A model generated the notes under the pieces. The model was given only the letters and a program-made list of their open reading frames with translations, ran no database searches and had not been told where the DNA came from. Of a stretch of DNA of 64,000 nucleotides, positions 5,387-59,726 are shown in pieces. The translations under genes and the position numbers were made by a program. Origin of the DNA: Eubacteriales bacterium (GTDB taxonomy: Bacteria > Bacillota > Clostridia > Oscillospirales > CAG-272); contig JAZOOS010000026.1 of assembly GCA_045655185.1 (NCBI GenBank), positions 9,505 to 73,504 on the forward strand. Direction: 5' to 3'. Numbering within the stretch: position 1 is the stretch's first letter; every line of letters begins with the position of its first letter.

Positions 5387-5416
5387 GTATGATTTTCGGC
5401 TTTTTGCTTACAATAG

Positions 5417-5612
5417 TAGGGGCGACCATCGGTCGTCCATTGCAAGCGACCATCGGTCGTCTGTTCTCATGCACGGCGATGCCGTGATGATATACACCTT
5501 CGGTGATGATATACAATGTCCTTTGGACGTTGATGATATACACCTTCGGTGATGATATACCAAGGCCAAGGCCTTGGATAAAACCTTTGGTTTTGGTCGT
5601 CCGTTGCAAAGG
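5417..5612. repeat. hairpin-plus-word ('comb') array, word ATGATATA, plus two GGCGACC-ATC-GGTCGTC hairpins
   Basis: Units: CACGGC-GA-GCCGTG+ATGATATA, CACC-TTCG-GGTG+ATGATATA, CAATGTCC-TT-GGACGTTG+ATGATATA, CACC-TTCG-GGTG+ATGATATA, CCAAGGCC-AA-GGCCTTGG+ATAAAA. These are preceded by TAGGGGCGACCATCGGTCGTCC and GCGACCATCGGTCGTC. Confidence 0.85.
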
Positions 5613-10944: not shown

Positions 10945-10964
10945 GCGTTTCGCTAAATCTCCAG

Positions 10965-10999
10965 AGGGGGCTTGCAAAATTCGGCAAGCTCCCTTTTTT
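10965..10999 (+). terminator. intrinsic terminator
   Basis: AGGGGGCTTGC-AAAATTCG-GCAAGCTCCCT followed by TTTTTT. Confidence 0.65.
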
Positions 11000-11161
11000 A
11001 AAAAGCGGTTGGTAAAACACGGTCGCTTCTGTTTTTGGATTTCCAAATAAACAAATCTATTTGGAAAAGCGAAACGTTTATTTGGAAAAAGTGTTGACTT
11101 ATTCAAAAGAGTATGGTACGATATTTGTATACTTGTGTTTTGAAAAGGGGTTACGGGAAAA

Positions 11162-12196
11162 GTGAAAGTTGTAAATCAAGAAAAGGTGAAGAATTATATC
11201 CTGCGTTTGATAAAAACAAAACGAAAGGATTATGTTAAGGCAACGATCGAAGCTTTTGCTATCAGCAAATCAAGTGTGTATAACTATGTGAAGCAAATGG
11301 AAGAGGACGGGCTGATTGAAAAAAAAGGGGGGGCGTACGTCCTTCAAACAAACGCTTATTACTATTCCTTCAAAAACAACGGAACAAATGGGGAGGATTA
11401 TATTTACAGCCAGTTTATATCGAAGCATATCGCGTTTAAGAAAAACGTGAATTCTATATGGAATTACGCATTTACAGAAATGATGAACAACGCAATTGAG
11501 CATTCGGGGGCAGAGAACATATTTGTCGCTGTTTATCAAAACTGCCTTGATACTCAAATTCTTATTAAGGATGACGGGATCGGTATTTTTAGAAAAATTC
11601 AAGCCTTCATGAAAGAAAGCAAAAACGAAACCGTTTCGCTTCGGGAATGCGTTTCGCTTTTGTTCGCGGGGAAATTTACAACCGCCAAGCAATACCATAC
11701 GGGCGAGGGGATTTTCTTCACGTCTCATATCATGGACGAATTTATTATTTATTCGGACGACAATTTTTTTACCAGAAACAATTTTTCGTCTGCTCAAATA
11801 GAGAACAGTGATCTGCATAGCCTTATGAAAATGGAACAGGGAACGGTTGTAAGTATGACCCTTGGCAACAACACAAAAAAAGCGTTATCCGAGGTGTTTA
11901 ATACCTTTGCACCGGTTGAAGAAGGTTTTATAAAAACCACGATCCCGGTAGCGCATATGTTTGCGGGCGGGAACCCCGTATCTCGCTCTGAAGCAAGGCG
12001 ATTGCTTGGATGCGTAGCGCTCTTTAACGATATTGTTCTGGATTTTTCCGGAGTAGAAGAAATAGGTCAAGGCTTCGCGCACGAGCTTTTTGTTCTCGGA
12101 AAGCAAAAGCATCCGCATATCAATTTAAAAACCGTCAACGCCTGCAAATCGGTTGAGGATATGATAAAGCGAGTTATTAAAACGGCGGCTCTCTAA
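11162..12196 (+). CDS. fused wHTH - GHKL (HATPase_c-like) - STAS-like (DUF4325-type) protein
   Basis: 344 aa, GTG start. N-terminal SKSSVYNYVKQMEEDGLIEKK (winged HTH). N-box EMMNNAIEHSG, G1 DDGIGIF, G2 HTGEGIFF. C-terminal VLDFSGVEEIGQGFAHELFV resembles STAS/DUF4325. The region looks AT-richer than its flanks. Confidence 0.6.
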   Translation: MKVVNQEKVKNYILRLIKTKRKDYVKATIEAFAISKSSVYNYVKQMEEDGLIEKKGGAYVLQTNAYYYSFKNNGTNGEDYIYSQFISKHIAFKKNVNSIWNYAFTEMMNNAIEHSGAENIFVAVYQNCLDTQILIKDDGIGIFRKIQAFMKESKNETVSLRECVSLLFAGKFTTAKQYHTGEGIFFTSHIMDEFIIYSDDNFFTRNNFSSAQIENSDLHSLMKMEQGTVVSMTLGNNTKKALSEVFNTFAPVEEGFIKTTIPVAHMFAGGNPVSRSEARRLLGCVALFNDIVLDFSGVEEIGQGFAHELFVLGKQKHPHINLKTVNACKSVEDMIKRVIKTAAL

Positions 12197-12248
12197 TGAA
12201 GGTATGGCTGTTTTCCTTCAGCATTTTTGCAAAAAAGGCGGCTTTCGA

Positions 12249-13423: not shown

Positions 13424-14191
13424 ATGGAAATTATTGATTTTCACATTCATCCCCCTATCGGGAAAGAGGCGAACATCTGCCATTACAGGGATACCGTTGA
13501 AAACAGCGAGGCGACGATCCTTTCGGATATGCAGCGGGCGGGGATCTCCCGCTTCTGCGGCTCGGTGATCCTGAAGGACAGCGGTCCCGTGTCTCTCCTT
13601 GAAAGAACCAACACCGAAACGCTTGCGCTTGCCGAGCGCTTCGGGGGCGCGTATATCCCCGGCGCGATGATCCATCCTGCCGCCGTTCGTGAATCCTGCG
13701 AGTGGCTGGAGAAGATGCATAAGGCGGGTTGCCGCCTCATTGGCGAGATCGTCCCCTATATCCACCGCTGGGAGGGGGGATACCGAAATCCCGCCCTTCG
13801 GGAGATCTTATCGCTGGCGGGCGAGCTTTCGATGGTCGTTTCCTACCACAGCACGGAAGACGTCGCGGGGGAAATGGCGATGGTAAGCGAGAACCCCGAC
13901 ACCACCTTCGTCGCGGCCCACCCCGGGGAAAAGACACGCTTTCTTGCGCACCTTGACTCGATGAAGCAATATAAGAACCTCTGTCTCGATCTTTCGGGCA
14001 CGGGCCTCTTCCGCTACGGCCTTCTTCGCGAGGGTGTCAAGACCCTTGGGGCCGAGCGCTTCCTCTTCGGTACCGATTACCCCATCTGCAACCCGATGGC
14101 CTACCGCGCCGCGGTGGAATACGAGCCGATCTCGGATGCTGAAAAGGAGCTCATCTTCTCGGGCAACGCCAAGCGCCTTTTAGGGCTGTAA
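13424..14191 (+). CDS. amidohydrolase-2 (PF04909-like) family metal-dependent hydrolase
   Basis: 255 aa. MEIIDFHIHP metal-binding start and ...FLFGTDYP near the C-terminus. Confidence 0.75.
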   Translation: MEIIDFHIHPPIGKEANICHYRDTVENSEATILSDMQRAGISRFCGSVILKDSGPVSLLERTNTETLALAERFGGAYIPGAMIHPAAVRESCEWLEKMHKAGCRLIGEIVPYIHRWEGGYRNPALREILSLAGELSMVVSYHSTEDVAGEMAMVSENPDTTFVAAHPGEKTRFLAHLDSMKQYKNLCLDLSGTGLFRYGLLREGVKTLGAERFLFGTDYPICNPMAYRAAVEYEPISDAEKELIFSGNAKRLLGL

Positions 14192-14253
14192 AAAAATAGA
14201 AAAAAAACCGCCAAGCGGTGCCTGCGATATAGCAGTATAAACCAACTAACAGG

Positions 14254-14291
14254 AAAAGGATAGAGAATTTTTACGTTCTCTATCCTTTTTT
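14254..14291 (+). terminator. intrinsic terminator
   Basis: AAAAGGATAGAGAA-TTTTTACG-TTCTCTATCC-TTTTTTT. Confidence 0.7.
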
Positions 14292-14302
14292 TGACAAGCA
14301 CT

Positions 14303-14512
14303 GCATTTGTGGACACAAATGCTATTTTTAGTTATGAGTTATGAGGCTCGCTTACGCTCACCGTTATGAGTTTGCTCCGCAACCGTTATGATACGATCGC
14401 CAGGTTGCTTCAAGCTGCACCGAAGGTGCATCATAACTTGCCGAAGGCAATCATAACTCTAAACTCGCCACAGGCGATCATAGTTGGCGTCCTGCTCTAC
14501 GGCAGGCGCGCC
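14303..14512. repeat. comb array, word GTTATGAG (left half) / ATCATAAC (right half)
   Basis: GCATTTGT-GGAC-ACAAATGC, then GTTATGAG x3 and GTTATGAT. Then GCACC-GAA-GGTGC+ATCATAAC, TGCC-GAA-GGCA+ATCATAAC, CGCC-ACA-GGCG+ATCATAGT, and a terminal GGCGTCCTGC...GCAGGCGCGCC hairpin. Confidence 0.85.
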
Positions 14513-14564
14513 AAAGGGTGCTTTTTCTTTTTGGCTTTTTAAGGGAAGGGGGTTTCGCCCCGCT

Positions 14565-15170
14565 TTATTCCGCGCGGCTTCGGGAATACACCGTCATACC
14601 GACGCCCACGTCGCGAACGAGAATATCCTTCGGCATTTTCAAGAATCTGGCGGTTACGAAGAAGTCGCCCGCCGCCCCCGACAGATTCATGATCTGTATG
14701 ATGTAAACCACCCAAAACCACGAAAGGGGAACCAGGAAATTCACAACGGCAAGCACCGCGCCCCAAAGAACGACGGGCGCCTGCGCAATAAAGATATACG
14801 CCCCTTTCCCGTAATAATCGTCGCTTCCCGCAAAGGCGTAAAGCCCCGTAAAGCCGTATTTCACCCGCTTGGTACCGCACAGCTTCATAGCGGCGCCGTG
14901 AATAAGCTCGTGCAGGATGATGTATAACACCGACAAAACGATCAGCGCGCCAAAGCGAAGCGCGTAATTCGAAAGCCCCTCTTCCATACTGAAGAGCGTG
15001 GATATCGGGACCGCAATATGCGCGGGAACGGCCAGAAGAACGCCCAAAAGAACGGCAAAAAGGTTAATTCCAACCTTTGCTTTTTTGTCTTTTTGCAGAT
15101 CGACTGAATAGATCTTTGTATACCCTTCGGGCAAGCTTTCGATCGCGCGCATCGTGTAAGCTCCTTTCAT
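14565..15170 (-). CDS. DUF3267-type putative zincin metallopeptidase (membrane)
   Basis: 201 aa, multiple TM segments, HELIHG (HExxH) motif in the expected position. Confidence 0.7.
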   Translation of the reverse strand: MKGAYTMRAIESLPEGYTKIYSVDLQKDKKAKVGINLFAVLLGVLLAVPAHIAVPISTLFSMEEGLSNYALRFGALIVLSVLYIILHELIHGAAMKLCGTKRVKYGFTGLYAFAGSDDYYGKGAYIFIAQAPVVLWGAVLAVVNFLVPLSWFWVVYIIQIMNLSGAAGDFFVTARFLKMPKDILVRDVGVGMTVYSRSRAE

Positions 15171-15194
15171 ATCGGTTAAGGATAGAAAACGTTT

Positions 15195-15722
15195 TTATTT
15201 TTCCTTGTATTCATGCGTATCGGCGGGATAAACCAGCTTGATGCTCTTGCGATTTTGCAAGTGAACGATATAAAATTTATCCCCCGATGAAGCGAGCTGA
15301 TAGGCCGTTTTCGTGGCCTCAAAGGGCTTAAAGCCGTGAAAAACGAAAAAATCGAATTGACCGCGGCGCTGGCCCCGCACCGTTTCGGTTTTGTAGGATA
15401 AGGGCATAAGCTTGATCTCAAATTCCCCCGCCGCAAATTTCTTTCTTCTCCAAAGGAGGAGAAAAGCCGCAAAAAGCGCGGCACAAGCGTGGAAGGCAAA
15501 AAAGGCGATCGACAAAGCCGAAAACAAAAAAACAAGGGATGGGGCCGTGAAAAGATTGGAAACGATAAATAGGCAGAGAAGCGCCCCCATAACGCTAAAC
15601 AGAATGGTGAAAAGGATGGAAAGCAAATGCGCGCGGATCTCTTCCCTGCTAAAGGCAAGAAGATCTTCCCTCACGGTTTTTCGCGTGATTGGGATCTTCG
15701 TTTTCTTTTCCATAAGGATCAC
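15195..15722 (-). CDS. hypothetical 2-TM membrane protein (paralog of 17301..17864)
   Basis: 175 aa: charged N-terminus, two TM helices, RRKK, then a soluble tail ending ...KLVYPADTHEYKEK. Same layout and C-terminal motif as the ORF on the other side of the tRNA operon. Confidence 0.6.
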   Translation of the reverse strand: MILMEKKTKIPITRKTVREDLLAFSREEIRAHLLSILFTILFSVMGALLCLFIVSNLFTAPSLVFLFSALSIAFFAFHACAALFAAFLLLWRRKKFAAGEFEIKLMPLSYKTETVRGQRRGQFDFFVFHGFKPFEATKTAYQLASSGDKFYIVHLQNRKSIKLVYPADTHEYKEK

Positions 15723-15860
15723 CGCCTTTCTGATTGCATTGTATCATATTTTCCGATATTTTTCAACACAAAAACTTCCTTTCGTTTGGGGTACACACCG
15801 CAATACCAAAAGGAAGGGTTGGATAAGATTTTGGGGATTATTTGTTATCAATGAACGCAT

Positions 15861-15974
15861 CCAAATCACGGCAAAGCCGTGGATATCATCAAGGCGAAGC
15901 CTTGTATATCATCAAGACGCGGGAGAATGCACGCCGGTGCGTGATGATATGCCAAGCCTGCGGTTTGGATAAAA
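15861..15974. repeat. comb array, word ATATCATC (left) / GATGATAT (right)
   Basis: CCAAATCACGGCAAAGCCGTG+GATATCATC, AAGGC-GA-GCCTT+GTATATCATC, ...GCAC-GCCG-GTGC+GTGATGATATG, CCAAGCC-TGC-GGTTTGG+ATAAAAAAA. Confidence 0.85.
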
Positions 15975-16007
15975 AAATAAAGCACCCGAAATGGGTGCTT
16001 TATTTTT
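15975..16007. terminator. bidirectional intrinsic terminator
   Basis: AAATAAAGCACCC-GAAA-TGGGTGCTTTATTTTT. Near-identical copy at 16587..16624. Confidence 0.65.
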
Positions 16008-16032
16008 AGAGGTGTGTTGACAGAAAAGATGC

Positions 16033-16329
16033 CTACTTTTTTATTTTTGCAACTATTCTTGCAACAATTGAAAGAACGATATAGATTGTACATACACCTA
16101 CAAAAACCCAACCGATCGGGTTATCTCCACGAGATTCGACAAGCATAACAACGCCAACGACAAGAAGAACAAACAAGCAAATGCCTATCAAAGAAAATAT
16201 AACCACCAAAATCTTTTCTGTACGCGGTGAAAGAGCTTTGTTGGGCATAAAAGCAACAGAGAAGGCAACAAAGCCTTCGGCAAATATATTAAAAACAACT
16301 TCGACCAAAAAATCCACAAGAAAATCCAT
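16033..16329 (-). CDS. hypothetical small membrane protein
   Basis: 98 aa, 3 hydrophobic segments, looks AT-rich, bracketed by two related comb arrays. Confidence 0.5.
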   Translation of the reverse strand: MDFLVDFLVEVVFNIFAEGFVAFSVAFMPNKALSPRTEKILVVIFSLIGICLFVLLVVGVVMLVESRGDNPIGWVFVGVCTIYIVLSIVARIVAKIKK

Positions 16330-16394
16330 TGTTCTACCGCCCTTCTCGGCTTAGTATAGCATAAAAGCGGTGGGGAGTCAATCCGTTTGCGTGT

Positions 16395-16586
16395 CCAAAT
16401 CACGGCAAAGCCGTGGATGGAATCCGCAGCTTGTCTGCGGTATGGAATCGGCCCGTAGGGCCGAATGGAATCAAGCCGACGGGAAATACAGCCTAAAGGC
16501 TGATGCCATGCACGGCTCGCGCCGTGGTTCCATGCAATTCGCTTTGCGAATTGATGCCATGCCAAGCCTCCTTTGTCGGCTTGGAT
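16395..16586. repeat. comb array, word ATGGAAT (left) / TTCCATG-GCCATG (right)
   Basis: CCAAATCACGGCAAAGCCGTG+GATGGAAT, CCGCAG-CTTGT-CTGCGG+TATGGAAT, CGGCCC-GTA-GGGCCG+AATGGAAT, ...CACGGC-TCGC-GCCGTG+GTTCCATG, CAATTCGC-TT-GCGAATTG+ATGCCATG, CCAAGCC...GGCTTGG+ATAAAAAAA. Confidence 0.85.
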
Positions 16587-16624
16587 AAAAAAACAAAGCA
16601 CCCGAAATGGGTGCTTTGTTTTTT
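16587..16624. terminator. bidirectional intrinsic terminator ending the tRNA operon
   Basis: AAAAAAACAAAGCACCC-GAAA-TGGGTGCTTTGTTTTTTT, abutting the 3' end of tRNA-Cys. Confidence 0.7.
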
Positions 16625-16698
16625 TGGAGGCGCCACCCAGAATCGAACTGGGGGTAGAGGTGTTGCAGACCTTTGCCTTACCGCTTGGCCATGGCGCC
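16625..16698 (-). tRNA. tRNA-Cys (GCA)
   Basis: Reverse complement GGCGCCATGGCCAAGCGGTAAGGCAAAGGTCTGCAACACCTCTACCCCCAGTTCGATTCTGGGTGGCGCCTCCA. Cloverleaf folds, anticodon loop CT-GCA-AC, U73 discriminator, encoded CCA. Confidence 0.9.
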
Positions 16699-16734
16699 GA
16701 GGTAAAAACGGACACAGGGTTTCCGTGTCCGTTC

Positions 16735-16810
16735 TGGAGCGGATTACGGGGCTCGAACCCGCCACCTCGACCTTGGCAAGGTCGCGCTCTACCAAATGAG
16801 CTAAATCCGC
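16735..16810 (-). tRNA. tRNA-Gly (GCC)
   Basis: Reverse complement GCGGATTTAGCTCATTTGGTAGAGCGCGACCTTGCCAAGGTCGAGGTGGCGGGTTCGAGCCCCGTAATCCGCTCCA. Anticodon loop TT-GCC-AA. Confidence 0.9.
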
Positions 16811-16831
16811 AAGTGGCAGCATAATGCTGCA

Positions 16832-16907
<76 letters not shown>

Positions 16908-16910
16908 AAA

Positions 16911-16987
16911 TGGCGACCCGGATGGGGCTCGAACCCACGACCTCTGCCGTGACAGGGCAGCGCTCTAACCAACTGAGCTACCAGGCC
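16911..16987 (-). tRNA. tRNA-Asp (GTC)
   Basis: Reverse complement GGCCTGGTAGCTCAGTTGGTTAGAGCGCTGCCCTGTCACGGCAGAGGTCGTGGGTTCGAGCCCCATCCGGGTCGCCA. Anticodon loop CT-GTC-AC. Confidence 0.9.
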
Positions 16988-17015
16988 GTTTCACCAATGG
17001 AGGGGACAAAAAGGT

Positions 17016-17092
17016 TGGTGGGAACAATAGGACTCGAACCTATGACCCCTTGCTTGTAAGGCAAATGCTCTAACCAACTGAGCTATGCTCCC
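17016..17092 (-). tRNA. tRNA-Val (TAC)
   Basis: Reverse complement GGGAGCATAGCTCAGTTGGTTAGAGCATTTGCCTTACAAGCAAGGGGTCATAGGTTCGAGTCCTATTGTTCCCACCA. Anticodon loop CT-TAC-AA. Confidence 0.9.
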
Positions 17093-17121
17093 ATCCCGAC
17101 CGCTTTTTCAACGGCTTTCTA

Positions 17122-17150
17122 ATTATAGCAAAAGACTTTTGGTTTGTCAA
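17122..17150 (-). promoter_or_regulatory. sigma-A type promoter of the tRNA operon
   Basis: The minus strand reads TTGACA (comp. 17145-17150), 17 nt, TATAAT (comp. 17122-17127), about 30 nt upstream of tRNA-Val. Confidence 0.65.
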
Positions 17151-17300
17151 GCCCTTTTTTTGCATTTTTTTATTTTTTTATTTTTTCCTTACGAGAAAAG
17201 GCTTTTTTGCGCTTTCTCTCCCTTTTTTTTCTTGACGGATATCCGCGTTTGTGCTACTATAGCGGTAAGAGTATTGCATTTTCCGAAAGGGGGTAGAGGG

Positions 17301-19337: not shown

Positions 19338-19506
19338 CCGAATGAAGTGTGCAGGAAAGTGTGGCAACACAGCCGAAGGAGTAACGCTCTCAGGTGTCCG
19401 CAAGGATAGAGACTGTATGCTGACGGATCTTTGGAGACGCCCACGTACGTGGGGGCCGAAGGGGCAAGCGCTGTGGCGCCAATCTCTCAGGCAAAAGGAC
19501 AAAGAG
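19338..19506 (+). promoter_or_regulatory. tandem glycine riboswitch
   Basis: Aptamer 2: GGAGACGCCC...GGGGGCCGAAGGGGCAAGCG...CTCTCAGGCAAAAGGACAAAG. Aptamer 1 (more degenerate): GCAGGAAAGTG...CAGCCGAAGGAGTAACGCTCTCAGGTGTCCGCAAGGATAGAG. Located upstream of an alanine/glycine symporter, a classical context. Confidence 0.8.
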
Positions 19507-19560
19507 CGAACCTTTTCGCATTTTTTGTTTTTTACGGGGCGTTTCGTACGCCCCTTTTTT
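19505..19560 (+). terminator. two consecutive leader terminators (expression platform)
   Basis: GCGAA-CCTT-TTCGC+ATTTTTTGTTTTTT, then GGGGCG-TTTCGTA-CGCCCC+TTTTTT. Confidence 0.6.
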
Positions 19561-19592
19561 GTTGTTTATTTTATGTTTCTTTGGAGGAAATT

Positions 19593-21137
19593 ATGGAACA
19601 GTTTATCAATGGCGTCACAAACGTCAACAACGCCGTCAACGGCGCGGTATGGGGTCTTCCCGGCCTCATCCTTCTCATCGGTACCGGCATTTTGCTGACC
19701 GTGCTCACCAAGGTCTTTCAGGTGCGGCACGTCGGGCATTGGTGGAAGCAAACCATCGCCAGTGTCTTTAAAAAGGACAGCAAAAGCACCAAGCAGACCG
19801 ACAAAAAGAGCATCTCGCAATTCCAAGCGCTTTGCGCCGCCCTTGCCGCCACGGTCGGCACGGGAAATATCGCGGGCGTTGCCGCCGCGATCGTAACGGG
19901 TGGCCCCGGCGCGGTTTTCTGGATGTGGTTCGCCGCCTTCTTCGGAATGATGACCAACTTCTCGGAAAACCTGCTCGGCATCTACTACCGCCGCCGCAAC
20001 AAGGACGGCGAGTGGTCGGGTGGCCCGATGTATTATCTGTGCGACGGGCTTGGCAAGCGCTACGGCAAGAAGTGGCTTTCGCCGACCTCGAAGGTCTTGG
20101 CGGTCCTCTTCTCTTGCTTTGCCATCCTTGCTTCCTTCGGTATCGGAAACATGGCGCAGATCAATAAGATCGTTCTTAACATGGACGCCGCCTTCTTCCA
20201 GAACGCCAGCCTCGGCGTGATCCCCGGCACCGATATCAATATCATCCACCTGCTGCTTGGCATTTTCCTGCTTATCATCGGCGCCCTCATTATCATCGGC
20301 GGGTTGAAGCGTATTGCCCGCTTTGCCGAGATCGTTGTTCCGATCATGGCTATCGTTTACGTCCTCGGCTCGCTCATCATCGTTTGCATCAACATCAGCC
20401 AGGTTGGCCCGATGTTCGTTTCGATCTTCAAGTTTGCCTTTACGCCTGCCGCCTTCCTTGGCGGTGGGATCGGCGTTCTCATCAAAAAGACGATGACGCA
20501 GGGCTTCAAGCGCGGCGTTTTCTCGAACGAGGCGGGTCTTGGCTCTTCGGTCATGGTTCACTCTTCCTCGAACGTCAAAGAGCCGGTCAAGCAGGGTATG
20601 TGGGGCATCTTTGAGGTCTTCTTCGATACCATGATCGTTTGCACCATGACGGCGGTCGTCGTTCTTTCGACCGGCTATATCGATCTTGCCACCGGTACGC
20701 CCGTGGCGGGCATCAACGGCGATACGCTGGTTTCGACCGCGTTTGGTAAATACTTCGGCGCCCCCGGCACCTGGTTCGTGGCGATCGCGATGCTCTTCTT
20801 CGCCTTTACCACGGTTCTCGGCTGGTCGCAATACGGCTCGAAGGCGGTCGAATACCTCTTCGGCACGAAGGGCGTGAAGGTCTATCGCTTCATCTTTGTC
20901 GCGATGATCGTTTCGGGTGCTATTATGGAGGGTGGCCTTGCCTGGGATCTTTCGGATACCTTCAACGGGCTGATGATGATCCCGAACCTTATCGGTGTTC
21001 TGGCGCTCTTCCCCTTGGTCGTTAAGATCACGAAGAACTACGTCGACCGTAAGATCTTTAAAAAGGATATCGCCCCGCTTCTTTCCTACGACCCCGAAAT
21101 TCAGGCGGAGATGGAAAGAACGCTTGACGAGGAATAA
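19593..21137 (+). CDS. agcS: alanine/glycine:cation (sodium) symporter, AGCS family
   Basis: ORF 19431..21137. Start MEQFINGVTNVNNAVNGAVWG after GGAGGAAA. FQALCAALAATVGTGNIAGVAAAI and SNEAGLGS motifs. Confidence 0.85.
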   Translation: MEQFINGVTNVNNAVNGAVWGLPGLILLIGTGILLTVLTKVFQVRHVGHWWKQTIASVFKKDSKSTKQTDKKSISQFQALCAALAATVGTGNIAGVAAAIVTGGPGAVFWMWFAAFFGMMTNFSENLLGIYYRRRNKDGEWSGGPMYYLCDGLGKRYGKKWLSPTSKVLAVLFSCFAILASFGIGNMAQINKIVLNMDAAFFQNASLGVIPGTDINIIHLLLGIFLLIIGALIIIGGLKRIARFAEIVVPIMAIVYVLGSLIIVCINISQVGPMFVSIFKFAFTPAAFLGGGIGVLIKKTMTQGFKRGVFSNEAGLGSSVMVHSSSNVKEPVKQGMWGIFEVFFDTMIVCTMTAVVVLSTGYIDLATGTPVAGINGDTLVSTAFGKYFGAPGTWFVAIAMLFFAFTTVLGWSQYGSKAVEYLFGTKGVKVYRFIFVAMIVSGAIMEGGLAWDLSDTFNGLMMIPNLIGVLALFPLVVKITKNYVDRKIFKKDIAPLLSYDPEIQAEMERTLDEE

Positions 21138-21194: not shown

Positions 21195-21400
21195 TACGGA
21201 CGGATCACCCCCGTGCAAGGGGAGGTGGCTTGCGAAGCAAGACGGAAGGGTTGCTAAAACAATCCCTCACCGCCTGCGGCGGAGCTCCCTTTACACAAGG
21301 GAGCCTTTCTTCCACCATGCCCGATCTTTTGCTATGGAAGGATAAAACCTTCGATTTTTGTAGAGTAGGGGCGGCCATTGGCCGTCCGCGCGAAACGAGC
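21195..21400. repeat. hairpin-rich repeat tract upstream of cassette 1
   Basis: GCTTGC-GAA-GCAAG, CCGCC-TGC-GGCGG, GCTCCCTT-TACAC-AAGGGAGC, CTTCCA...TGGAAG+GATAAAACC, TAGGGGCGGCCATTGGCCGTCC. Confidence 0.7.
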
Positions 21401-21456
21401 AAATCGCTATCCCCGTTTTCACCGAAATATGCGTTATAATAGGGGCGCAAACCGAA

Positions 21457-21485
21457 TTGACGGCGAGTGATTTTTGATGTATAAT
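21457..21485 (+). promoter_or_regulatory. promoter of toxin cassette 1
   Basis: TTGACG, 17 nt, TATAAT. The same element is present upstream of cassettes 2 and 3. Confidence 0.65.
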
Positions 21486-21498
21486 AAAGGAGAATACG

Positions 21499-22040
21499 AT
21501 GAGCTCTGTTACAGAAGCGAATCCTTACGTTTTGGGAAACAGCAAAACGTGGAAGAATTGGCAAGCCAACTATAAAGAGCCGAGAACCTGCCTGCCGTGC
21601 GAAGATAAGCATGGGAAGATCTATCCTTTTCTTCAAGTTTAAAAATCCCCGAGCATCTGTTTTGTCGATGCGAAATTGTTCCAATGCGAACAAAACAAGT
21701 GGGGACAGCCACCGATAAAGGCTTTGGCTGGGCCGATGCTTGGTTGATGTATCGGGGCAGGTTGCCGGATTGTTATATTACAAAGAGAGATGCGCTGAAA
21801 ATGGGATGGAAATCTAACAAACAAAACTTGGCAGATGTTTGTCCGGAAAAGCTAATAGGAAATGTACCATATCGTAACTACGAGGGAAAACTTCCTATTA
21901 AGGCTGATCGAAGCTGGTATGAGGCAGATTTTGATTATATTGGCAACGATAGAGGGGCAAACAGAATTTTATATTCGAACGATGGCTTAATCTTTGTCAG
22001 CTACGATCATGCAAAAACTTTTTATGAATTAGTGAAATAA
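21499..22040 (+). pseudogene. mini-MuF - barnase-like RNase toxin, frameshifted (cassette 1)
   Basis: MSSVTEANPYVLGNSKTWKNWQANYKEPRTCLPCEDKHGKIYPF then TAA at 21640-21642. Relative to copies 2 and 3, one C is missing in TATCC(C)TTTT at about 21626. The shifted frame continues ...SSSLKIPEHLFCRCEIVPMRTKQVGT... through the full barnase-like domain (track ORF 21684..22040). Confidence 0.8.
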
Positions 22041-22052
22041 AGAGGTGACATT

Positions 22053-22373
22053 GTGCTGAACACATATAAATACAAAGTCGATTTTTCGGGCGTGGAGGAT
22101 TATTGGGATATCCACGGCATACTTAAAGAAAGCTTGAATTTTCCCGATTATTACGGCGGTCATTTGGACGCGCTTTTTGATTGCCTTACCGATATGCTTG
22201 GCGCCATTTCGATAATTGAAATACACGGAATAGAAAAACTTGAAAAGTATGACGGGTATGACAAAAGGGTGATTGATGTTTTTCGTGACGCAAAGCATGT
22301 TTATGATGAATTTTCCGACCGCTTCTTCGTTACGATCGTTCATGAGGACGGCACGCGCGAAGAAATCGTATAG
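22053..22373 (+). CDS. barstar-like immunity protein (cassette 1)
   Basis: 106 aa, GTG start. ILKESLNFPDYYGGHLDALFDCLTDML matches the barstar [23 protein letters not shown] motif. Confidence 0.8.
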   Translation: MLNTYKYKVDFSGVEDYWDIHGILKESLNFPDYYGGHLDALFDCLTDMLGAISIIEIHGIEKLEKYDGYDKRVIDVFRDAKHVYDEFSDRFFVTIVHEDGTREEIV

Positions 22374-25989: not shown

Positions 25990-26072
25990 CATCTACCCGC
26001 CGCCCGTTTGATGCAAGGCGATGCCGTGATGATATACCAAGGCAAGGCCTTGGATAAAAACCGTAGGTGTAG

Positions 26073-26294
26073 GGTTAGTGCAGAAAAAACGGCAAAGGCG
26101 TTTTTTCAATCGGTGTCGGCCAAAGCGCGAGCGGGCAGAGCCGAGCAGGCGCAGGCGATAGAACGCGACACACGACGCCGACAGGTTAGTGCAGAAAAAA
26201 CGGCAAAGGCGTTTTTTCAATCGGTGTCGGCCAAAGCGCGAGCGGGCAGAGCCGAGCAGGCGCAGGCGATAGAACGCGACACACGACGCCGACA
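26073..26294. repeat. perfect 111-bp tandem duplication
   Basis: GGTTAGTGCAGAAAAAACGGCAAAGGCGTTTTTTCAATCGGTGTCGGCC...GACGCCGACA occurs twice head-to-tail (26073-26183, 26184-26294), identical by eye. Confidence 0.9.
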
Positions 26295-26391
26295 GGTCGA
26301 GCATCGCTCGTCCGGTTTTTCCTCGTAGGCGCGTAGGGGCGACCATTGGTCGTCCGCTGAAATATGCGTTATAATAGGGGCGTAAACCGAT

Positions 26392-26420
26392 TTGACGGCG
26401 AGCGATTTTTGATGTATAAT
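26392..26420 (+). promoter_or_regulatory. promoter of toxin cassette 2
   Basis: TTGACG (26392-26397), 17 nt, TATAAT (26415-26420). Confidence 0.65.
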
Positions 26421-26433
26421 AAAGGAGAATACG

Positions 26434-26976
26434 ATGAGCTCTGTTACAGAAGCGAACCCTTACGTTTTGGGAAACAGCAAAACGTGGAAGAATTGGCAAG
26501 CAAAATATAAAGAGCCGAGAACCTGCCTGCCGTGCGAAGAAAAGCATGGGAAAATTTATCCCTTCACTTCAAGTTTTAAAATTCCCGAGCATTTGTTTTG
26601 CCGATGCGAAATTGTCCCGATGCGAACAAAGCAGGTGGGCACAGTAACCGACAAGGGCTTCGACGGCGCCGATGCTTGGTTGATGTATCGGGGTAGGTTG
26701 CCGGATTATTACGTTACGAAGGAAGAAGCAATGGCTTGTGGGTGGGATTACAGAAAGAAAAATCTTGCAGAAAAATGCCCCTGCAAAATGATAGGTGGAA
26801 ACATTTATCGGAATGATGACTTAAAACTTCCCACTTCTCCTGATAGGGAGTGGCGAGAAGCCGATTTCGATTTCGTATCTGGAAAAAGAAATCGAAAAAG
26901 AATTTTATATTCAAACGACGGGTTGATTTTTGTCAGCTATGATCACGCGCAAACCTTTTATGAACTAGTGAAATGA
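26434..26976 (+). CDS. mini-MuF - barnase-like RNase toxin (cassette 2)
   Basis: 180 aa. RTCLPCEEKHGKIYPF...IPEHLFCRCEIVP (MuF/SPP1 gp7 C-terminal core), then YVTKEEAMACGW...LKLP...WREADFDF...RKRILYSNDGLIFVSYDHAQTFYELVK (barnase-like, Glu/His pair present). Confidence 0.8.
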   Translation: MSSVTEANPYVLGNSKTWKNWQAKYKEPRTCLPCEEKHGKIYPFTSSFKIPEHLFCRCEIVPMRTKQVGTVTDKGFDGADAWLMYRGRLPDYYVTKEEAMACGWDYRKKNLAEKCPCKMIGGNIYRNDDLKLPTSPDREWREADFDFVSGKRNRKRILYSNDGLIFVSYDHAQTFYELVK

Positions 26977-26986
26977 GGTAAATCCA

Positions 26987-27313
26987 ATGCTTGAAACTTA
27001 CAGATACAGAGTTGATTTATCCAAAGCCAAAAACCATTGGGAGATACACGATATCTTGAAAGAAGCCTTGGATTTTCCCGATTATTACGCAGGACATCCG
27101 TATGCTCTGTGGGATTGCTTAACCGATATGCTGGGCGGGATCAATTACATAGAGATCTCGGGAATGGAAAACGTGAAAATGGTTTCCGCCGAAGATTATA
27201 AAGAGATTCTTTCCTTGCTAAAAGAAACCAAACATGCTTACGACGATAAATTTTCCGACCGCTTCTTCGTTACCATCGTTCACGAGGACGGCACGCGCGA
27301 AGAGATCCTGTGA
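26987..27313 (+). CDS. barstar-like immunity protein (cassette 2)
   Basis: 108 aa. ILKEALDFPDYYAGHPYALWDCLTDML; ends ...VHEDGTREEIL, like the other two copies. Confidence 0.8.
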   Translation: MLETYRYRVDLSKAKNHWEIHDILKEALDFPDYYAGHPYALWDCLTDMLGGINYIEISGMENVKMVSAEDYKEILSLLKETKHAYDDKFSDRFFVTIVHEDGTREEIL

Positions 27314-29235: not shown

Positions 29236-29389
29236 CATCTATCCGCCGCGCGTTTTTTCTGCGGACGGCCGATGGCCGTTTCGTTGCGTTTTTCACCGTA
29301 GGGGCGAGCATCGCTCGTCCGCGCGAAACGGGCAAAGCGTTGTCCTCATTTGCGCCGAAATATGCGTTATAATAGGGGCGCAAGCCGAT

Positions 29390-29418
29390 TTGACGGCGAT
29401 CGATTTTTGATGTATAAT
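29390..29418 (+). promoter_or_regulatory. promoter of toxin cassette 3
   Basis: TTGACG (29390-29395), 17 nt, TATAAT (29413-29418). Confidence 0.65.
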
Positions 29419-29431
29419 AAAGGAGAATACG

Positions 29432-29974
29432 ATGAGCTCTGTTACAGAAGCGGATCCTTATGTTTTTGGAAACAGCAAAACGTGGAAGAATTGGCAAGCA
29501 AAATATAAAGAGCCGAGAACCTGCAAGCCGTGCGAGGATAAACATGGGAAGATCTATCCCTTTTCTTCAAGTTTAAAAATTCCCGAGCATTTGTTTTGCC
29601 GATGCGAAATTGTCCCGATGCGAACAAAGCAGGTGGGCACAGTAACCGACAAGGGCTTCGACGGCGCCGATGCTTGGTTGATGTATCGGGGCCGGTTGCC
29701 GGATTATTATGTTACGAAAGAAGAAGCGAAGGGGAAAGGGTTTCGCCGCAAAAAGCAAAACTTGGCAGATGTTCTTCCCGGTCAAATGATAGGGGGGGAT
29801 GAGTTTAGTAACGATCAAAGAAAATTGCCGGACGCACCAAACAGAAGATGGTACGAAGCCGATCTTGATTATACTTACGGAAAAAGAAATTTGAAAAGGA
29901 TTTTATATTCAAGTGACGGTTTGATTTTTGTAACGAAAGATCATTATCAAACATTTTACGAAGTAATAAAGTGA
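29432..29974 (+). CDS. mini-MuF - barnase-like RNase toxin (cassette 3)
   Basis: 180 aa. Closest of the three to Bacillus barnase: YVTKEEAKGKGF..KQNLADVLPGQMIGGDEFSNDQRKLPDAPNRRWYEADLDYTYGKRNLKRILYSSDGLIFVTKDHYQTFYEVIK. Confidence 0.85.
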   Translation: MSSVTEADPYVFGNSKTWKNWQAKYKEPRTCKPCEDKHGKIYPFSSSLKIPEHLFCRCEIVPMRTKQVGTVTDKGFDGADAWLMYRGRLPDYYVTKEEAKGKGFRRKKQNLADVLPGQMIGGDEFSNDQRKLPDAPNRRWYEADLDYTYGKRNLKRILYSSDGLIFVTKDHYQTFYEVIK

Positions 29975-29983
29975 GGGAAAGAG

Positions 29984-30301
29984 ATGGATAAATATGTTGT
30001 GGATTTTTCCGAAGTAACACATTACATCGAGATTCATGAAGCATTAAAGAAAGATTTGGATTTTCCCGATTATTACGGCGGGAACACCGATGCTTTATGG
30101 GATTGCTTGACCGATATGCTGGGCGATTCTTCGCATATTGAGCTTGTTGGCTTTGAAAAGGTAAAAGAACGCTATAAAAATGAATGGGAAGGCATCCTTC
30201 GAATTATGAAAAAAGCAAAGCATGCCTACGGCGGTAAATATGCAAACACATTTGTTGTCGTGTTAATACATGAGGACGGCACACGGGAAGAGATCCTATA
30301 A
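29984..30301 (+). CDS. barstar-like immunity protein (cassette 3)
   Basis: 105 aa. ALKKDLDFPDYYGGNTDALWDCLTDML. Confidence 0.85.
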   Translation: MDKYVVDFSEVTHYIEIHEALKKDLDFPDYYGGNTDALWDCLTDMLGDSSHIELVGFEKVKERYKNEWEGILRIMKKAKHAYGGKYANTFVVVLIHEDGTREEIL

Positions 30302-33316: not shown

Positions 33317-33708
33317 TTAGCGTGTTATCCTTAACGGAGAACACGCAGCGATATAAATCTCTTTTGGGATTTGCGATATGTTTTGAACACCTCGCCGTAG
33401 GCGAGATATTCAAAACTCGATATTTGCTACGCAAACGATGTGCCCTGCGGGGCGTGAGGGGATTTATATCATATCGCACCGAGCATAGCACGGTATATCG
33501 CAACCGAGTGAAACGAGGTTATATCGCATTCGCACGGCGAATATATCGTCTAACGTAAAAAGAGATAACATTTCGGCTACAAACCGATCTGTTATCTCTT
33601 TCTGTCGTTATAAGGGTTTGGGCTTAGTCCAATTAGCGTTTGTCCAGACAAATGCGATGCTTGCACTTTTGTCAAAGTGTAAATTCTCCGCTAAGAACAT
33701 CACCCATT
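33317..33708. repeat. comb array (word GCGATAT / ATATCGC) plus extra hairpins, inserted in the loop of a terminator palindrome
   Basis: The left arm AAAAAGAGCAGAA (33304-33316) and right arm TTCTGCTCTTTT (33709-33722) are separated by about 390 nt. The insert begins TAGCGTGTTATCC...GGAGAACACGC and contains GCGATAT x3 followed by ATATCGCA x3. Confidence 0.8.
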
Positions 33709-49458: not shown

Positions 49459-49473
49459 AAAGAGCAGAACCGT

Positions 49474-49675
49474 AGCGTGATACTCCAAGCGGAGTATTCA
49501 CGCTACAACTATGATTGCCCTTACGGGCAAGTTATGAGTTATGAGATGCTTCGTATCGTTATGATTGGCTTCGCCAAGTTTTAGGTTACAAAGGCAATCA
49601 TATCATAACGCTTGCCGTGCAAGCTCATAACGGGGAGCGAAGCGAACCTCATAACTCTAAACTAAACGAACAGAA
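49474..49675. repeat. comb array (word GTTATGA / TCATAAC) flanked by a duplicated terminator left arm
   Basis: Begins GTAGCGTGATACTCC-AAGC-GGAGTATTCACGCTAC. Then TGCCC-TTAC-GGGCA+AGTTATGAGTTATGAG, TGGC-TTC-GCCA, GCTTGC-CGT-GCAAGC+TCATAAC, ...TCATAACTCTAAACT. Flanked by AAAAAGAGCAGAACCGT at 49457-49473 and within 49674-49691. Confidence 0.8.
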
Positions 49676-49709
49676 AAAAGAGCAGAACCGTGTGTTCTGC
49701 TCTTTTTTT
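49674..49709. terminator. terminator palindrome family member
   Basis: AAAAAAGAGCAGAAC-CGTGT-GTTCTGCTCTTTTTTT. Confidence 0.7.
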
Positions 49710-59339: not shown

Positions 59340-59627
59340 ACGGCAGGGGGCATAAGATATACTTGCTGTGCAAGCATGATAGAATATCCGTTCCTTATAT
59401 GCCCGCGATATCATAGCGAAGCTATATACCCGTTCCGCTCGGAGCATTGGATATCATCCGTCCGAAAGCGAGATGTACTCGTTTTCGGGCGAGTATCTCA
59501 TCAAGCCGCAGGGAAAATACACGCGGAAGCGTGATGATATGCCCCGCACTTCGCGCGGTGATGTAAGGAGCGGAGCGACGGAATAGCGAGCCTGCGAGCG
59601 TCTATACCAAGCCTGCGGCTTGGATAA
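59340..59627. repeat. comb array, word ATATCATC-like (left) / GATGATAT (right)
   Basis: CTTGC-TGT-GCAAG, ...GGATATCATCC, ACTCG-TTTTCGGG-CGAGT+ATCTCATC, CACGC-GGAA-GCGTG+ATGATATG, ...CCAAGCC-TGC-GGCTTGG+ATAAAAAAA. Confidence 0.75.
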
Positions 59628-59670
59628 AAAAATTCGACAAGACGACGCTCGTCGTTCGGAAGGACAGTTT

Positions 59671-59720: not shown

Positions 59721-59726
59721 TAGTTT

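Follow-up and report, generated by a model that had tools for sequence, protein, structure and literature searches.

A modular hairpin-array family located at intrinsic terminators in gut Clostridia

Introduction

The hairpins of one REP family have a common sequence in alternating orientation and a conserved foot tetranucleotide such as GTAG, and REP and BIME elements can affect transcript stability or termination. In foldback and subterminal-repeat transposons (Drosophila FB, En/Spm, Tn7, Mu) the repeats are protein-binding sites in duplex DNA without hairpin spacers, and autonomous elements of the foldback type encode a transposase. Integron attC sites carry one pair of R and L boxes (RYYYAAC...GTTRRRY) and have an IntI gene nearby.

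The BOX repeat of pneumococci is built as boxA-(boxB)n-boxC with conserved modules of 45-59 nt, and SPRITE is terminator-like (PMC3049150). Clusters of adjacent hairpins, located between operons and near gene ends, have been described as intrinsic terminators (PMC8355165).

The window studied here (the whole stretch of DNA analysed, 64 kb) contains at 14303-14512 a tract of short hairpins alternating with a small word that is inverted half-way. Such arrays are called combs below. The tract is a copy of a genuine family of arrays of modular hairpins that appears not to have been described before and is present in more than 100 species of gut Clostridia. Combs resemble REP/BIME elements and REPINs in having opposed GC-rich extragenic palindromes near gene ends and a polar unit of motif and hairpin, but their hairpins all differ and are arranged in two blocks. 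With foldback transposons they share inverted arms of tandem short repeats, a variable repeat number and a unique middle; we know of no bacterial equivalent of foldback elements at comb size. Like attC sites, recombination sites that are defined by the structure of a folded single strand and not by sequence, combs have short complementary boxes around a variable palindromic core and separate small genes. Unlike in attC, the word is specific to the locus, is repeated up to six times and stands in the opposite order; an integrase was not seen. As in MITEs, terminal inverted repeats (class I, judged by eye) and presence/absence polymorphism were found, whereas near-identical copies were not, nor was an autonomous partner in the window and 919 kb of related loci.

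BOX elements and combs are both small intergenic modular repeats with variable internal units between fixed ends; BOX and SPRITE share with combs tight predicted folds, enrichment downstream of genes, nesting with other repeats and the lack of a transposase of their own (PMC3049150). Combs differ from BOX in that the internal hairpins are unrelated in sequence, the constant part being only a word of 7-12 nt, and in the half-way inversion and the adjoining separate terminator and tRNA 3' ends. Moreover, BOX is found in one species group, whereas combs occur across a whole bacterial family of Clostridia, unrelated to pneumococcus. The hairpin clusters of PMC8355165 are generic; unlike for combs, no repeated words, inversion or family conservation were reported. 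Full-text literature searches yielded no description of these arrays.

The array at 14303-14512

The sequence-only reading had described this tract as four words followed by three inverted ones with differing hairpins in between, and the sequence itself bears this out. GTTATGA starts on the + strand at 14331, 14338, 14363 and 14385. Its complement is present at 14431-14437 and 14451-14457, and a degenerate copy, ATCATAGT, at 14477. The unrelated GC-rich hairpins between the words are GCACC-GAA-GGTGC, TGCC-GAA-GGCA, CGCC-ACA-GGCG and TTGC-TCC-GCAA. GTTATGA occurs 16 times in the window (4.6 +/- 2.1 expected), and 12 of the 16 occurrences lie within this array and the one at 49474. The following features were assigned by sequence, the last also by comparison with L002 (L numbers designate related loci).

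14303..14329, + strand: boundary hairpin GCATTTGTGGACACAAATGC with T-run, directly 5' of the first word (then AGTTAT...), terminator-like
14330..14392, + strand: 5' arm with four GTTATGA words
14393..14429, + strand: unique centre ACGATCGCCAGGTTGCTTCAAGC and central hairpin GCACC-GAA-GGTGC
14430..14484, + strand: 3' arm with inverted words ATCATAAC (14430, 14450) and ATCATAGT (14477)
14485..14540, + strand: long terminal hairpin TTGGCGTCCTGC...GCAGGCGCGCCAA, then GGGTGCTTTTTCTTTT

The same junction of hairpin, T-run and AGTTAT is found 3' of tRNA genes in L017, L087 and L051. The separators of the 5' arm are one imperfect and one perfect hairpin with pyrimidine-rich loops, while the 3' arm holds the TGCC-GAA-GGCA and CGCC-ACA-GGCG hairpins and a motif, TCATAACTCTAAAC, in common with the 49474 array. 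The array of L001 shows only two differences, both within the centre (14393..14429). Behind the same gene L002 has a simple terminator, of which GGGTGCTTTTTCTTTT is the 3' arm plus T-tract, and the comb is located between the two halves of this terminator. About 310 nt (14205-14517) thus appear to sit within an ancestral terminator.

Other combs in the window

Seven further tracts of this design are present in the window. The same architecture with different words had been claimed for other intergenic sites, and all of these exist, with three corrections of detail: 5472-5583 holds four GATGATATA words in a single orientation only, the right-arm words of 16395-16586 are imperfect (ATGCCATG, GTTCCATG), and 59340-59627 is degenerate. 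The word GATGATAT was observed 14 times in the window (1.1 +/- 1.0 expected). Repeated 7-mers form 31 local clusters in the window, compared with 0-5 after Markov shuffling. This number includes several k-mers that overlap within one and the same array, as well as a few unrelated clusters, for example that of the tRNAs. The combs and adjoining features are:

49473..49673, + strand: second GTTATGA/TCATAAC comb; a complete terminator follows, reaching 49709
33317..33555, + strand: GCGATAT/ATATCGC comb; right end TCTAACG, then terminator 33556-33602
16394..16584, + strand: class I comb, words ATGGAAT / xxCCATG; ends and centre by sequence
16585..16698, - strand: A-tract, terminator hairpin AAAGCACCCGAAATGGGTGCTTT, T-tract and tRNA-Cys; the T-tract adjoins the CCA end of tRNA-Cys
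16353..16381, - strand: predicted outward sigma-70-type promoter TTGACT-17-TGnTATACT, 13 nt left of the left end of the 16394 comb
15860..16007, + strand: class I comb whose words are ATATCATC (twice) and GATGATAT (once), by sequence
5463..5594, + strand: one-armed class I comb with hairpin, four GATGATATA words, CCAAGGCCAAGGCCTTGG-ATAAAA and mini-terminator
26010..26062, + strand: minimal class I element with hairpin, one GATGATATA word, CCAAGGCAAGGCCTTGG and ATAAAAA; same form in L002
59330..59641, + strand: class I comb, degenerate, with CCAAGCCTGCGGCTTGG-ATAAAAAAA at its end, by sequence

The 33317 and 49473 combs have homologous left-end hairpins (TAGCGTG...CACGC in the former). The 16394 comb has left end TCCAAATCACGGCAAAGCCGTG, centre CAAGCCGACGGGAAATACA and right-end hairpin CCAAGCC...GGCTTGG, and its ends and terminator are the same as those of the 15860 comb (terminator 15979-16001). 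The neighbouring tRNA-Cys gene (16625-16698) is the last of a Val-Asp-Phe-Gly-Cys operon. On the other side, the predicted promoter is positioned to drive a 98-aa ORF (16033-16329), an arrangement also present in many homologues. The one-armed comb lies inside a 187-nt segment (5423-5609). The terminator of the 59330 comb is interrupted after TTCGACAAG by an element encoding a large serine recombinase, and the same junction is found in L053. The window also contains a separate family of GTAG-led palindromes (5416, 21365, 26333 and 29298).

Architecture of the elements

The canonical element begins with a terminal hairpin and, as a rule, three modules of word and hairpin. After a unique centre come inverted modules, again mostly three, and another terminal hairpin, and a bidirectional terminator of A-tract, hairpin and T-tract follows directly. 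Modules are polar: an AT-rich word of 7-12 nt is joined to a short GC-rich hairpin whose loop is usually GNA or GNRA on the strand whose word lacks G. Module counts (left,right) range from (0,1) to (6,3) with mode (3,3); terminal hairpins are kept and one-armed copies exist. In 57 of 60 arrays both arms carry the same word class. It had been proposed that an architecture is conserved rather than a sequence. The differing words agree with this, but in the GATGATAT class the sequence is conserved as well: more than 100 species retain its 12-nt words, its two terminal hairpins and its centre motif.

The inter-word segments (81 + 96 distinct ones) have a mean fold z of about -4 and form 38 + 59 different stems. 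Identity with REP/BIME was rejected on the absence of a common palindrome sequence among these hairpins and the variation of the constant word by array. Module hairpins are followed by a word and lack a U-tract of their own. Their loops are mostly of 3 nt and their stems are shorter than those of the true terminators next to them, which have a mean stem of 9.1 bp and loops of mostly 4 nt. Triloops make up 52-59% of the comb hairpins versus 23% of the adjacent terminators. The module hairpins were rejected as intrinsic terminators for lack of a T-run and for their short stems and 3-nt loops. GNA triloops closed by C:G are very stable in DNA.

The earlier exclusion of CRISPR holds: the words are 7-12 nt long and inverted half-way and the inter-word segments are palindromic with a median of 17-18 nt, whereas CRISPR needs repeats of ~23-50 nt in one orientation and non-palindromic spacers of ~26-72 nt. 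Integron attC was rejected because GTTATGA misfits GTTRRRY, the order is GTT...AAC, the words occur 3-4 times and the words of other combs are unrelated. DNA uptake sequences were dismissed since the words vary by locus, DnaA boxes with one 7-of-9 match per array, a group II intron remnant with no domain V match in Rfam, and a lambda-type attP with arm sites with no integrase nearby.

Class I ends are alike in inverted orientation (ATCAAGGCGAAGCCTTGTATATCATCA vs reverse complement ATCCAAGCCGCAGGCTTGGCATATCATCA); judged by eye, ATCA-hairpin-TG-TATATCATCA on the left is similar to ATCCA-hairpin-TGG-CATATCATCA, the right end read as its reverse complement. Such likeness would be expected if the words were protein-binding sites in duplex DNA, being either subterminal repeats for a transposase or sites for a regulator of the adjacent promoter, with the hairpins as mere spacers. 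The inversion of the words from one arm to the other, with a unique centre in between, which recalls transposon ends with several sites, the strict conservation of class I words across species and the location of arrays directly upstream of a predicted promoter fit this explanation. However, at least 10 unrelated word types, several of them in one 8-kb stretch, would need as many proteins, and the word spacing is irregular (19 to 31 nt). Spacers, furthermore, need not be hairpins, yet their pairing is kept by compensatory change. Binding sites with passive spacers are therefore considered very improbable.

Folding and covariation

Left and right words had been suggested to be complementary, giving an interrupted stem with side hairpins. 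Both the predicted folds and an RNAalifold consensus support this far beyond shuffled or slid controls. In minimum-energy folds the left words pair with the right words and the hairpins are side branches. Pairing is better than in dinucleotide shuffles, with z from -3.8 to -8.5: -3.8 (+ strand) and -4.0 (- strand) for 14296-14520, -4.9 for 16390-16590 and -8.5 for 49466-49680. No shuffle matched the native folds of these three regions. The consensus of 28 canonical homologues contains helices L1:R3, L2:R2 and L3:R1 plus side hairpins, with 97.7% of cells paired versus 90.4% in shuffles. Compensatory change was found in 19 pairs versus 10.9 +/- 1.7 in shuffles (0/500 as high), and the covariation score was 0.204, compared with 0.072 in shuffles and with no slid control above 0.051.

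In class I the compensatory changes were found in five side hairpins. The inter-arm helices are almost invariant, so that their pairing is not proven by covariation; no fine-scale covariation between particular left and right words was detected in the ATATCATC class (|z| <2), and the usual TGATGAGATACA in R1 gives an uncompensated A.G mismatch with L3. Complementarity was also found between the centre and a terminal hairpin, with a mean of 9.39 contiguous pairs versus 7.66 +/- 0.16 in shuffles (0/2000) and at least seven covarying variants.

The combs may be genes for a family of structured noncoding RNAs of ~120-250 nt. Transcription would proceed into the adjoining terminator and be convergent with that of the tRNA operon, and the product would act through its successive four-way junctions, e.g. 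as a scaffold or decoy for an RNA-processing enzyme. This is a serious rival, though on balance we consider it unlikely. The conservation of class I sequence and structure in more than 100 species, including the five hairpins with compensatory changes, the frequent GNRA and GNA loops and a conserved stretch TATTATAGCATAAAAGCG..ATAAATCA 5' of the first hairpin argue for an RNA. So do departures from the inter-arm helices, which on the array strand, read towards the terminator, are mostly U.G (~22 cells) versus C.A or other mismatches (~10 cells). The loop bias, and partly the G.U bias, reverse between the arms, which is unexpected for one functional strand: class I left arms have 15 G.U pairs on the + strand versus 1 on the - strand, right arms 9 versus 21. 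No such strand asymmetry was found in class II. Highly variable module number with one-armed copies, and the presence of many word classes together in one genome, also count against an RNA gene, as does the location of the class II copies of the window within 3' regions of protein-coding genes, not as units of their own. No Rfam family was matched: Rfam 15 at gathering score identified only tRNAs and a glycine riboswitch in the window, and at E<5 nothing credible over 14150-16700.

Distribution and strain differences

One end motif of the GATGATAT class matched at least 120 contigs, nearly all from uncultured Acutalibacteraceae/Oscillospiraceae gut genomes, and these contigs also carry combs of at least nine other word types. 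Many contigs terminate inside comb arrays. Among 2.9 million viral contigs the class I end motif gave four matches, taken as chance, and blastn against phage and plasmid collections gave none. Relatives were reached via homologues, since an exact-protein look-up of the upstream gene gave none; a metagenome scan for filled and empty sites with the end of that gene had no matches.

The elements sit at intrinsic terminators, and strains differ by their presence or absence and by module number. Insertion polymorphism, as predicted from the sequence-only reading, was indeed observed: three presence/absence differences were found among related strains, two of them at terminators. Segment 5423-5609 is missing in L001 and 49473-49673 in L127, where the terminator is intact without a comb; L128 has the comb with one difference. 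A target-site duplication of uniform length was not seen: a direct repeat of 16 nt, AAAAAGAGCAGAACCG, borders the 49473 comb (49457-49472 and 49675-49690), only A-runs are present at class I copies, and the empty site of L001 shows no clear duplication. Copies in the window share only ends or words and no near-identical ones were found, nor is a recent burst of copying apparent. Across the window and 919 kb of related loci, neither a transposase or longer autonomous element with comb ends nor separated half-arrays flanking genes were encountered, and of the 20 ORFs scanned, from the 64-kb window and 8-kb loci, none was a Y1 transposase. An origin by retroposition, starting from a terminated transcript, would explain the travelling terminator and the CCA/A-run junction. 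It was dropped because 5' truncation is not seen: the single-left-word arrays inspected (L050, L054) retain the left terminal hairpin, and the upstream promoter motif is conserved.

Terminators, tRNA genes and promoters

The terminator adjoins the CCA end of an opposite-strand tRNA gene in 61 of 126 class I copies, the array lying 28-41 nt from the tRNA 3' end. Fifteen tRNA identities are involved, and identical terminator sequences occur beside different tRNAs. The T-tract is present on the array's own strand as well. The array is always directly 5' of the terminator, and an own-strand T-tract would be needless if only the tRNA had to be terminated, which again agrees with a noncoding RNA. 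However, the only good promoter faces the opposite way, and the + strand at the array start has a TATTAT box with no convincing -35. The array end away from the terminator often supplies the -35 box of the predicted outward promoter. The arrays had been placed at transcript 3' ends, which is not simply so: their canonical position is between a terminator and the next promoter. The bidirectional terminator, the abutting tRNA 3' end, the outward promoter and the complementarity of centre and terminal hairpin are regularities that the sequence-only reading did not contain.

Behind tRNA operons series of comb, small gene, comb and small gene were found in the window, L017, L094 and L042. At the orthologous Val-Asp-Phe-Gly-Cys operon the window and L017 have different combs and different small genes downstream, and L017 has four combs with four different words in 2.1 kb. 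Genes for 23S_rRNA_IVP four-helix-bundle proteins are 20 of ~110 left-hand neighbours, often in tandem with a comb between. These series, the variation of the inter-comb genes between related genomes and the 23S_rRNA_IVP tandems suggest that combs could be recombination sites delimiting small gene cassettes, used as folded single-stranded DNA in analogy to attC. The dominance of triloops in comb hairpins and a rotational symmetry by which both strands fold alike point the same way. We nevertheless hold this improbable. No tyrosine recombinase was found beside the arrays and the tRNA operon among the 20 ORFs scanned; only large serine recombinases were seen, targeting the terminator rather than the comb. 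The words misfit the attC core RYYYAAC...GTTRRRY and their order is reversed, each cassette would have its own promoter and terminator, unlike integron cassettes, and no cassette was seen at two different combs.

Discussion

We tentatively prefer, at somewhat below even chance, the explanation that combs are modular fold-back repeats that lodge at terminators and mark the boundaries of transcription units. With two opposed module blocks around a centre, either strand can fold into a ladder once single-stranded. The rungs of this ladder would be word:word helices, each with hairpins on both sides, so that a chain of four-way junctions results, and pairing of the centre with a terminal hairpin would offer a second structure. 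The elements may spread or be exchanged at the DNA level, with terminators serving as landing sites or as portable homology, and arrays may grow or shrink by slippage between identical words. As boundary elements they would cause a transcript arriving from either side to fold into a very stable structure beside a two-way terminator, so that tRNA operons, which are highly transcribed, would be shielded from the variable small genes behind them. It is position alone that suggests this boundary or insulator role. Conservation of class I in more than 100 species would be expected of a functional gene more than of a selfish repeat and counts against the fold-back repeat explanation. So do the lack of a transposase or autonomous element with comb ends in the window and 919 kb of related loci, the lack of signs of a recent copying burst and of a uniform target-site duplication, and the near invariance of the inter-arm helices.

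A possible but rather doubtful alternative is that combs are a new form of genetic punctuation defined by structure, self-contained units of terminator, comb and promoter in which the chain of four-way junctions is the active part, either as noncoding RNA produced next to tRNA operons or as folded single-stranded DNA used by a recombinase to exchange small gene cassettes. If the junction chain is the active part, the words are free to vary as long as both arms change together, and one architecture would be compatible with many sequences.

In a large group of Clostridia from gut and rumen, metagenome assemblies are broken by these arrays, and combs left unannotated could be taken for tandem or CRISPR-like repeats. 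Should the RNA or the recombination-site explanation be true, combs would represent structured nucleic acids of a new class, made of repeated four-way junctions. If instead combs are boundary elements, many borders of transcription units, and especially the ends of tRNA operons, would be marked in these bacteria by a portable unit of terminator, structure and promoter. As an insulator part this unit would be a natural choice, and it would explain the great variability found behind tRNA operons in this family.

Layout and setting of the reported comb

The array at 14303-14512 is a comb, in which modules of a word and a hairpin form two opposed arms around a unique centre:

14303 onward: hairpin and T-run
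Left arm: AGTTATGA-GTTATGAG, hairpin, GTTATGAG, hairpin, GTTATGAT
Centre: unique sequence containing the hairpin GCACC-GAA-GGTGC
Right arm: ATCATAAC, hairpin, ATCATAAC-TCTAAAC, hairpin, ATCATAGT
End: long terminal hairpin

The words and hairpins that the sequence-only reading had described here were borne out. GTTATGA was found 16 times in the window (4.6 ± 2.1 expected), 12 of these inside the reported comb and a comb at 49473, while GATGATAT, the word of the combs termed class I, occurs 14 times against 1.1 expected. Every other site named as a comb is indeed present, but the tract 5463-5594 has words in a single orientation only. Convergent genes for an amidohydrolase (end 14191) and a DUF3267 protein (end 14565) flank the reported comb, and five of the eight arrays of the window have such a setting. 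Homologues of the upstream amidohydrolase with a named source are from Agathobacter and Hungatella (48-53 % identity). The window, from an uncultured clostridial bacterium, also carries a SCIFF peptide gene.

Combs in other species

The class I end motif, CCAAGSC-loop-GSCTTGG-ATAAAA, matched at least 120 contigs in a scan of one genome per species. Nearly all listed matches were from gut and rumen MAGs of Acutalibacteraceae, Oscillospiraceae or unclassified Clostridia. The canonical class I element reads:

Start: AAATCA, then a hairpin
Left arm: (TGTATATCATCA + hairpin) x n
Centre: CAAGCCGNNAG..ATACA, then the central hairpin
Right arm: (TGATGATATACA + hairpin) x m
End: CCAAGCC-loop-GGCTTGG, then ATAAAAAAA

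Left and right module counts in 96 arrays range from (0,1) to (6,3), with (3,3) as the mode (37 arrays). The arrays inspected that have a single left word, in the related loci L050 and L054, retain the left terminal hairpin, and module number thus varies internally. When the same related loci (919 kb) were searched without specifying a word, the design was recovered with the word pairs AGTGATAT/ATATCACT, ATGAAAT/ATTTCAT, ACTTCAT/ATGAAGT, AGTGATG/CATCACT, ATGAAGC/GCTTCAT, AATGATG/CATCATT, ATGTAAT/ATTACAT, ATGGAAT/ATTCCAT and GTTATGA/TCATAAC, the last being that of the reported comb. This bears out the claim that a single architecture comes with many words. The further statement that sequence is not conserved does not hold for the GATGATAT class, which is strongly conserved in sequence between species.

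On the G-free strand of a word, the loop of the next hairpin is usually GNA or GNRA, with the mirror image in the other arm. In class I it is the 5' arm, on either strand, that has the G-free words; in the reported class it is the 3' arm. Loops of 3 nt were found in 52-59 % of comb hairpins versus 23 % of adjoining terminators. By this rotational symmetry either strand offers the same structure, which does not tell which nucleic acid matters.

Folding and covariation

Single-strand folds of both strands of the reported tract (z-scores -3.8 and -4.0), of 16390-16590 (-4.9) and of 49466-49680 (-8.5) were better than all shuffles. In the predicted folds left words pair with right words and the hairpins stay as side branches, in line with the long interrupted stem that had been proposed. 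RNAalifold analysis of 28 canonical copies, without imposing the comb form, gave the helices L1:R3, L2:R2 and L3:R1 between left- and right-arm words, with a hairpin at each junction. Pairing cells made up 97.7 % of this alignment (90.4 % shuffled), 19 pairs were changed on both sides (10.9 ± 1.7 shuffled; 0 of 500 shuffles as high), and the covariation score was 0.204 versus 0.072 shuffled and at most 0.051 with partners slid. Side hairpins account for 15 of the 19 compensated pairs, and 15 of the 26 inter-arm pairs are invariant. Because the inter-arm helices are nearly invariant, inter-arm pairing is compatible with these data but not proven by them. The frequent R1 word TGATGAGATACA gives an uncompensated A.G mismatch; word classes agree between the arms in 57 of 60 arrays.

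The centre CAAGCCGACAG is complementary to part of the terminal hairpin, namely its loop and 3' half, giving this hairpin two possible partners. Both change together (GACAG with CTGTC, GCAGG with CCTGC, GAAG with CTTC, GATTT with AAATC, and others), with a mean of 9.39 contiguous pairs versus 7.66 ± 0.16 shuffled (0 of 2000 as high). Class II combs follow an analogous scheme with sequences of their own (AGTTATATTCGCC terminal, GGCGAATATAA central).

Terminators, tRNA genes and promoters

Directly after the array follow an A-tract, a hairpin and a T-tract, forming a two-way intrinsic terminator (mean stem 9.1 bp). Among 126 copies of class I, 62 have a tRNA gene no more than 260 nt away, in every case on the opposite strand. 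For all but one of these (61 of 62), the tRNA 3' end is separated from the array motif by only 28-41 nt, with the terminator T-tract leading directly into the TGG encoding CCA. Class I combs adjoin 15 tRNA identities; in the window, the comb 16394-16584 adjoins tRNA-Cys. Identical terminator sequences occur beside different tRNAs in different species, and the terminator therefore moves together with the array. Further operon-terminal tRNAs in the same loci precede combs of other word classes. The junction of hairpin, T-run and AGTTAT in the reported comb is the one found behind tRNA genes in L017, L087 and L051; in this the comb fits the same context.

The far array end often carries an outward promoter (TTGATT, 17 nt, TGnTATAAT, ribosome-binding site, start codon), its TTGATT provided by the end AAATCAA; the genes behind are small and mutually unrelated. 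A promoter scan of the window gave TTGACT-17-TATACT at 16381-16353. Behind tRNA operons combs alternate with small genes, the window series being tRNA operon, comb, 98-aa ORF, comb, 175-aa ORF, DUF3267 gene and reported comb. The orthologous Val-Asp-Phe-Gly-Cys operon in L017 is followed by four different combs, with genes different from those of the window.

The chief rival explanation is that combs are a true noncoding RNA gene family transcribed into the two-way terminator. Deep conservation, an additional T-tract and a U.G bias on the strand running into the terminator agree with this, but the sole good promoter points outward, the loop bias is mirrored between the arms and copy architecture is highly variable. 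The favoured and most likely reading is that combs are modular fold-back repeats at terminators, acting as transcription-unit boundaries.

Genes for 23S_rRNA_IVP four-helix-bundle proteins make up 20 of ~110 left-hand neighbours. They (PF05635) are the most frequent neighbours of class I combs (L005, L027, L036, L040, L042, L044, L094 and others), in some loci as tandem copies with a terminator-comb-promoter unit in between.

A second exact copy of the last 16-22 nt of the tRNA was seen 106-229 nt downstream of 16 of 91 operon-terminal tRNA genes (L017, L033, L037, L045, L049, L051, L055, L057, L065, L068, L082, L090, L098, L102, L106, L111), followed by an A-run and terminator and in 11 cases also a comb. 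Such copies are what small insertions into the 3' end of a tRNA gene, or recombination at the shared terminators, leave behind.

Differences between related genomes

Comparison of related strains for presence or absence, as the sequence-only reading had suggested, did bring out comb differences. A GTAG-led palindrome with a one-armed comb (5423-5609) is missing in L001, elsewhere ~94 % identical, and its L002 counterpart is a single-module version. The terminator at the Dus gene is intact in L127 (AAAAAGAGCAGAACC-GCC-GTTCTGCTCTTTTTTT); the window has a comb there, with AAAAAGAGCAGAACCG on one side and a second, complete terminator of the L127 type on the other. In L002 the amidohydrolase gene is followed by a simple terminator, the 3' arm of which, GGGTGCTTTTTCTTTT, is found again in the window directly after the reported comb. 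This suggests that comb and neighbours are situated within that terminator. The reported array in L001 is near-identical, with two differences.

The region behind the Val-Asp-Phe-Gly-Cys operon was rearranged in each relative examined. L001 has ~50 nt in place of 14623-16393, and in L002 (13254-13890 versus window 16624-17261) the operon lies the other way round with respect to the amidohydrolase gene that flanks it.

Other features of the window

5416-5445, 21365-21394, 26333-26362, 29298-29327: GTAGGGGCGNCCATYGGNCGTCC, a GTAG-led palindrome of a separate REP-like family
10946-12223: segment with a HATPase_c and DUF4325 (STAS-like) gene
19421-19512: glycine riboswitch aptamer (65 bits), ordinary, ahead of a gene for a sodium:alanine symporter (longest ORF 19431-21137)
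21420-22370, 26355-27310, 29353-30300: ~950-bp paralogous units
22398, 23141, 25958, 27341, 29204, 30319, 31826, 49669, 50354: terminators with the stem AAAAGAGCAGAACCGCGGTTCTGCTCTTTT
26073-26183, 26184-26294: 111-nt unit in exact tandem duplicate
59633-61421: edge of a recombinase-bearing element
59727-61421 (-): large serine recombinase gene at the element edge (Resolvase, Recombinase, Zn_ribbon_recom, DUF4368)

The AAAAGAGCAGAACCGCGGTTCTGCTCTTTT stem, near-identical in at least nine terminators behind unrelated genes, is a dispersed repeat in its own right; one of these terminators is the site holding the 49473 comb. Three paralogous two-gene units each have a GTAGGGGCGNCCATYGGNCGTCC copy directly upstream of the promoter, and the copy at 5416 was gained or lost jointly with the adjacent comb (versus L001). 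The ~950-bp units are 65-94 % identical, and their ORFs (~180 and ~108 aa) look like a toxin and immunity protein pair. The segment 10946-12223, missing in L001 and L002, looks like an inserted accessory gene. The 111-nt unit appears to be inserted in a GTAG palindrome directly after GTAGGG, in the manner of IS200/IS605-type elements; the copy in L002 (3097-3227) is 100 % identical for 131 nt, although that genome is ~85 % identical elsewhere. The recombinase-bearing element breaks the terminator of a comb after TTCGACAAG. The junction ..AAGGACAGTTTT.. was also found in L053, L082, L045 and L010, and the comb's terminator thus acts as an attachment site.

Place among known repeats

From the observed position, polymorphism and structure of the combs we infer how they may move and act. 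A comb would use terminators for landing or as shared homology, its module number would be altered by slippage, and it would serve as a transcription-unit boundary. Among the nearest known systems are pneumococcal BOX and SPRITE repeats (PMC3049150), REP/BIME clusters, foldback-type transposon ends, integron attC sites and generic hairpin-cluster terminators (PMC8355165). All have some features in common with combs, but combs depart from each of them in defining features. Involvement of the combs in cassette recombination, or in protein binding, is considered less likely. No description of combs was found in the sources covered, Rfam and full-text literature. Combs belong among the structured, modular intergenic repeats, with a fair chance that they are something more distinctive.
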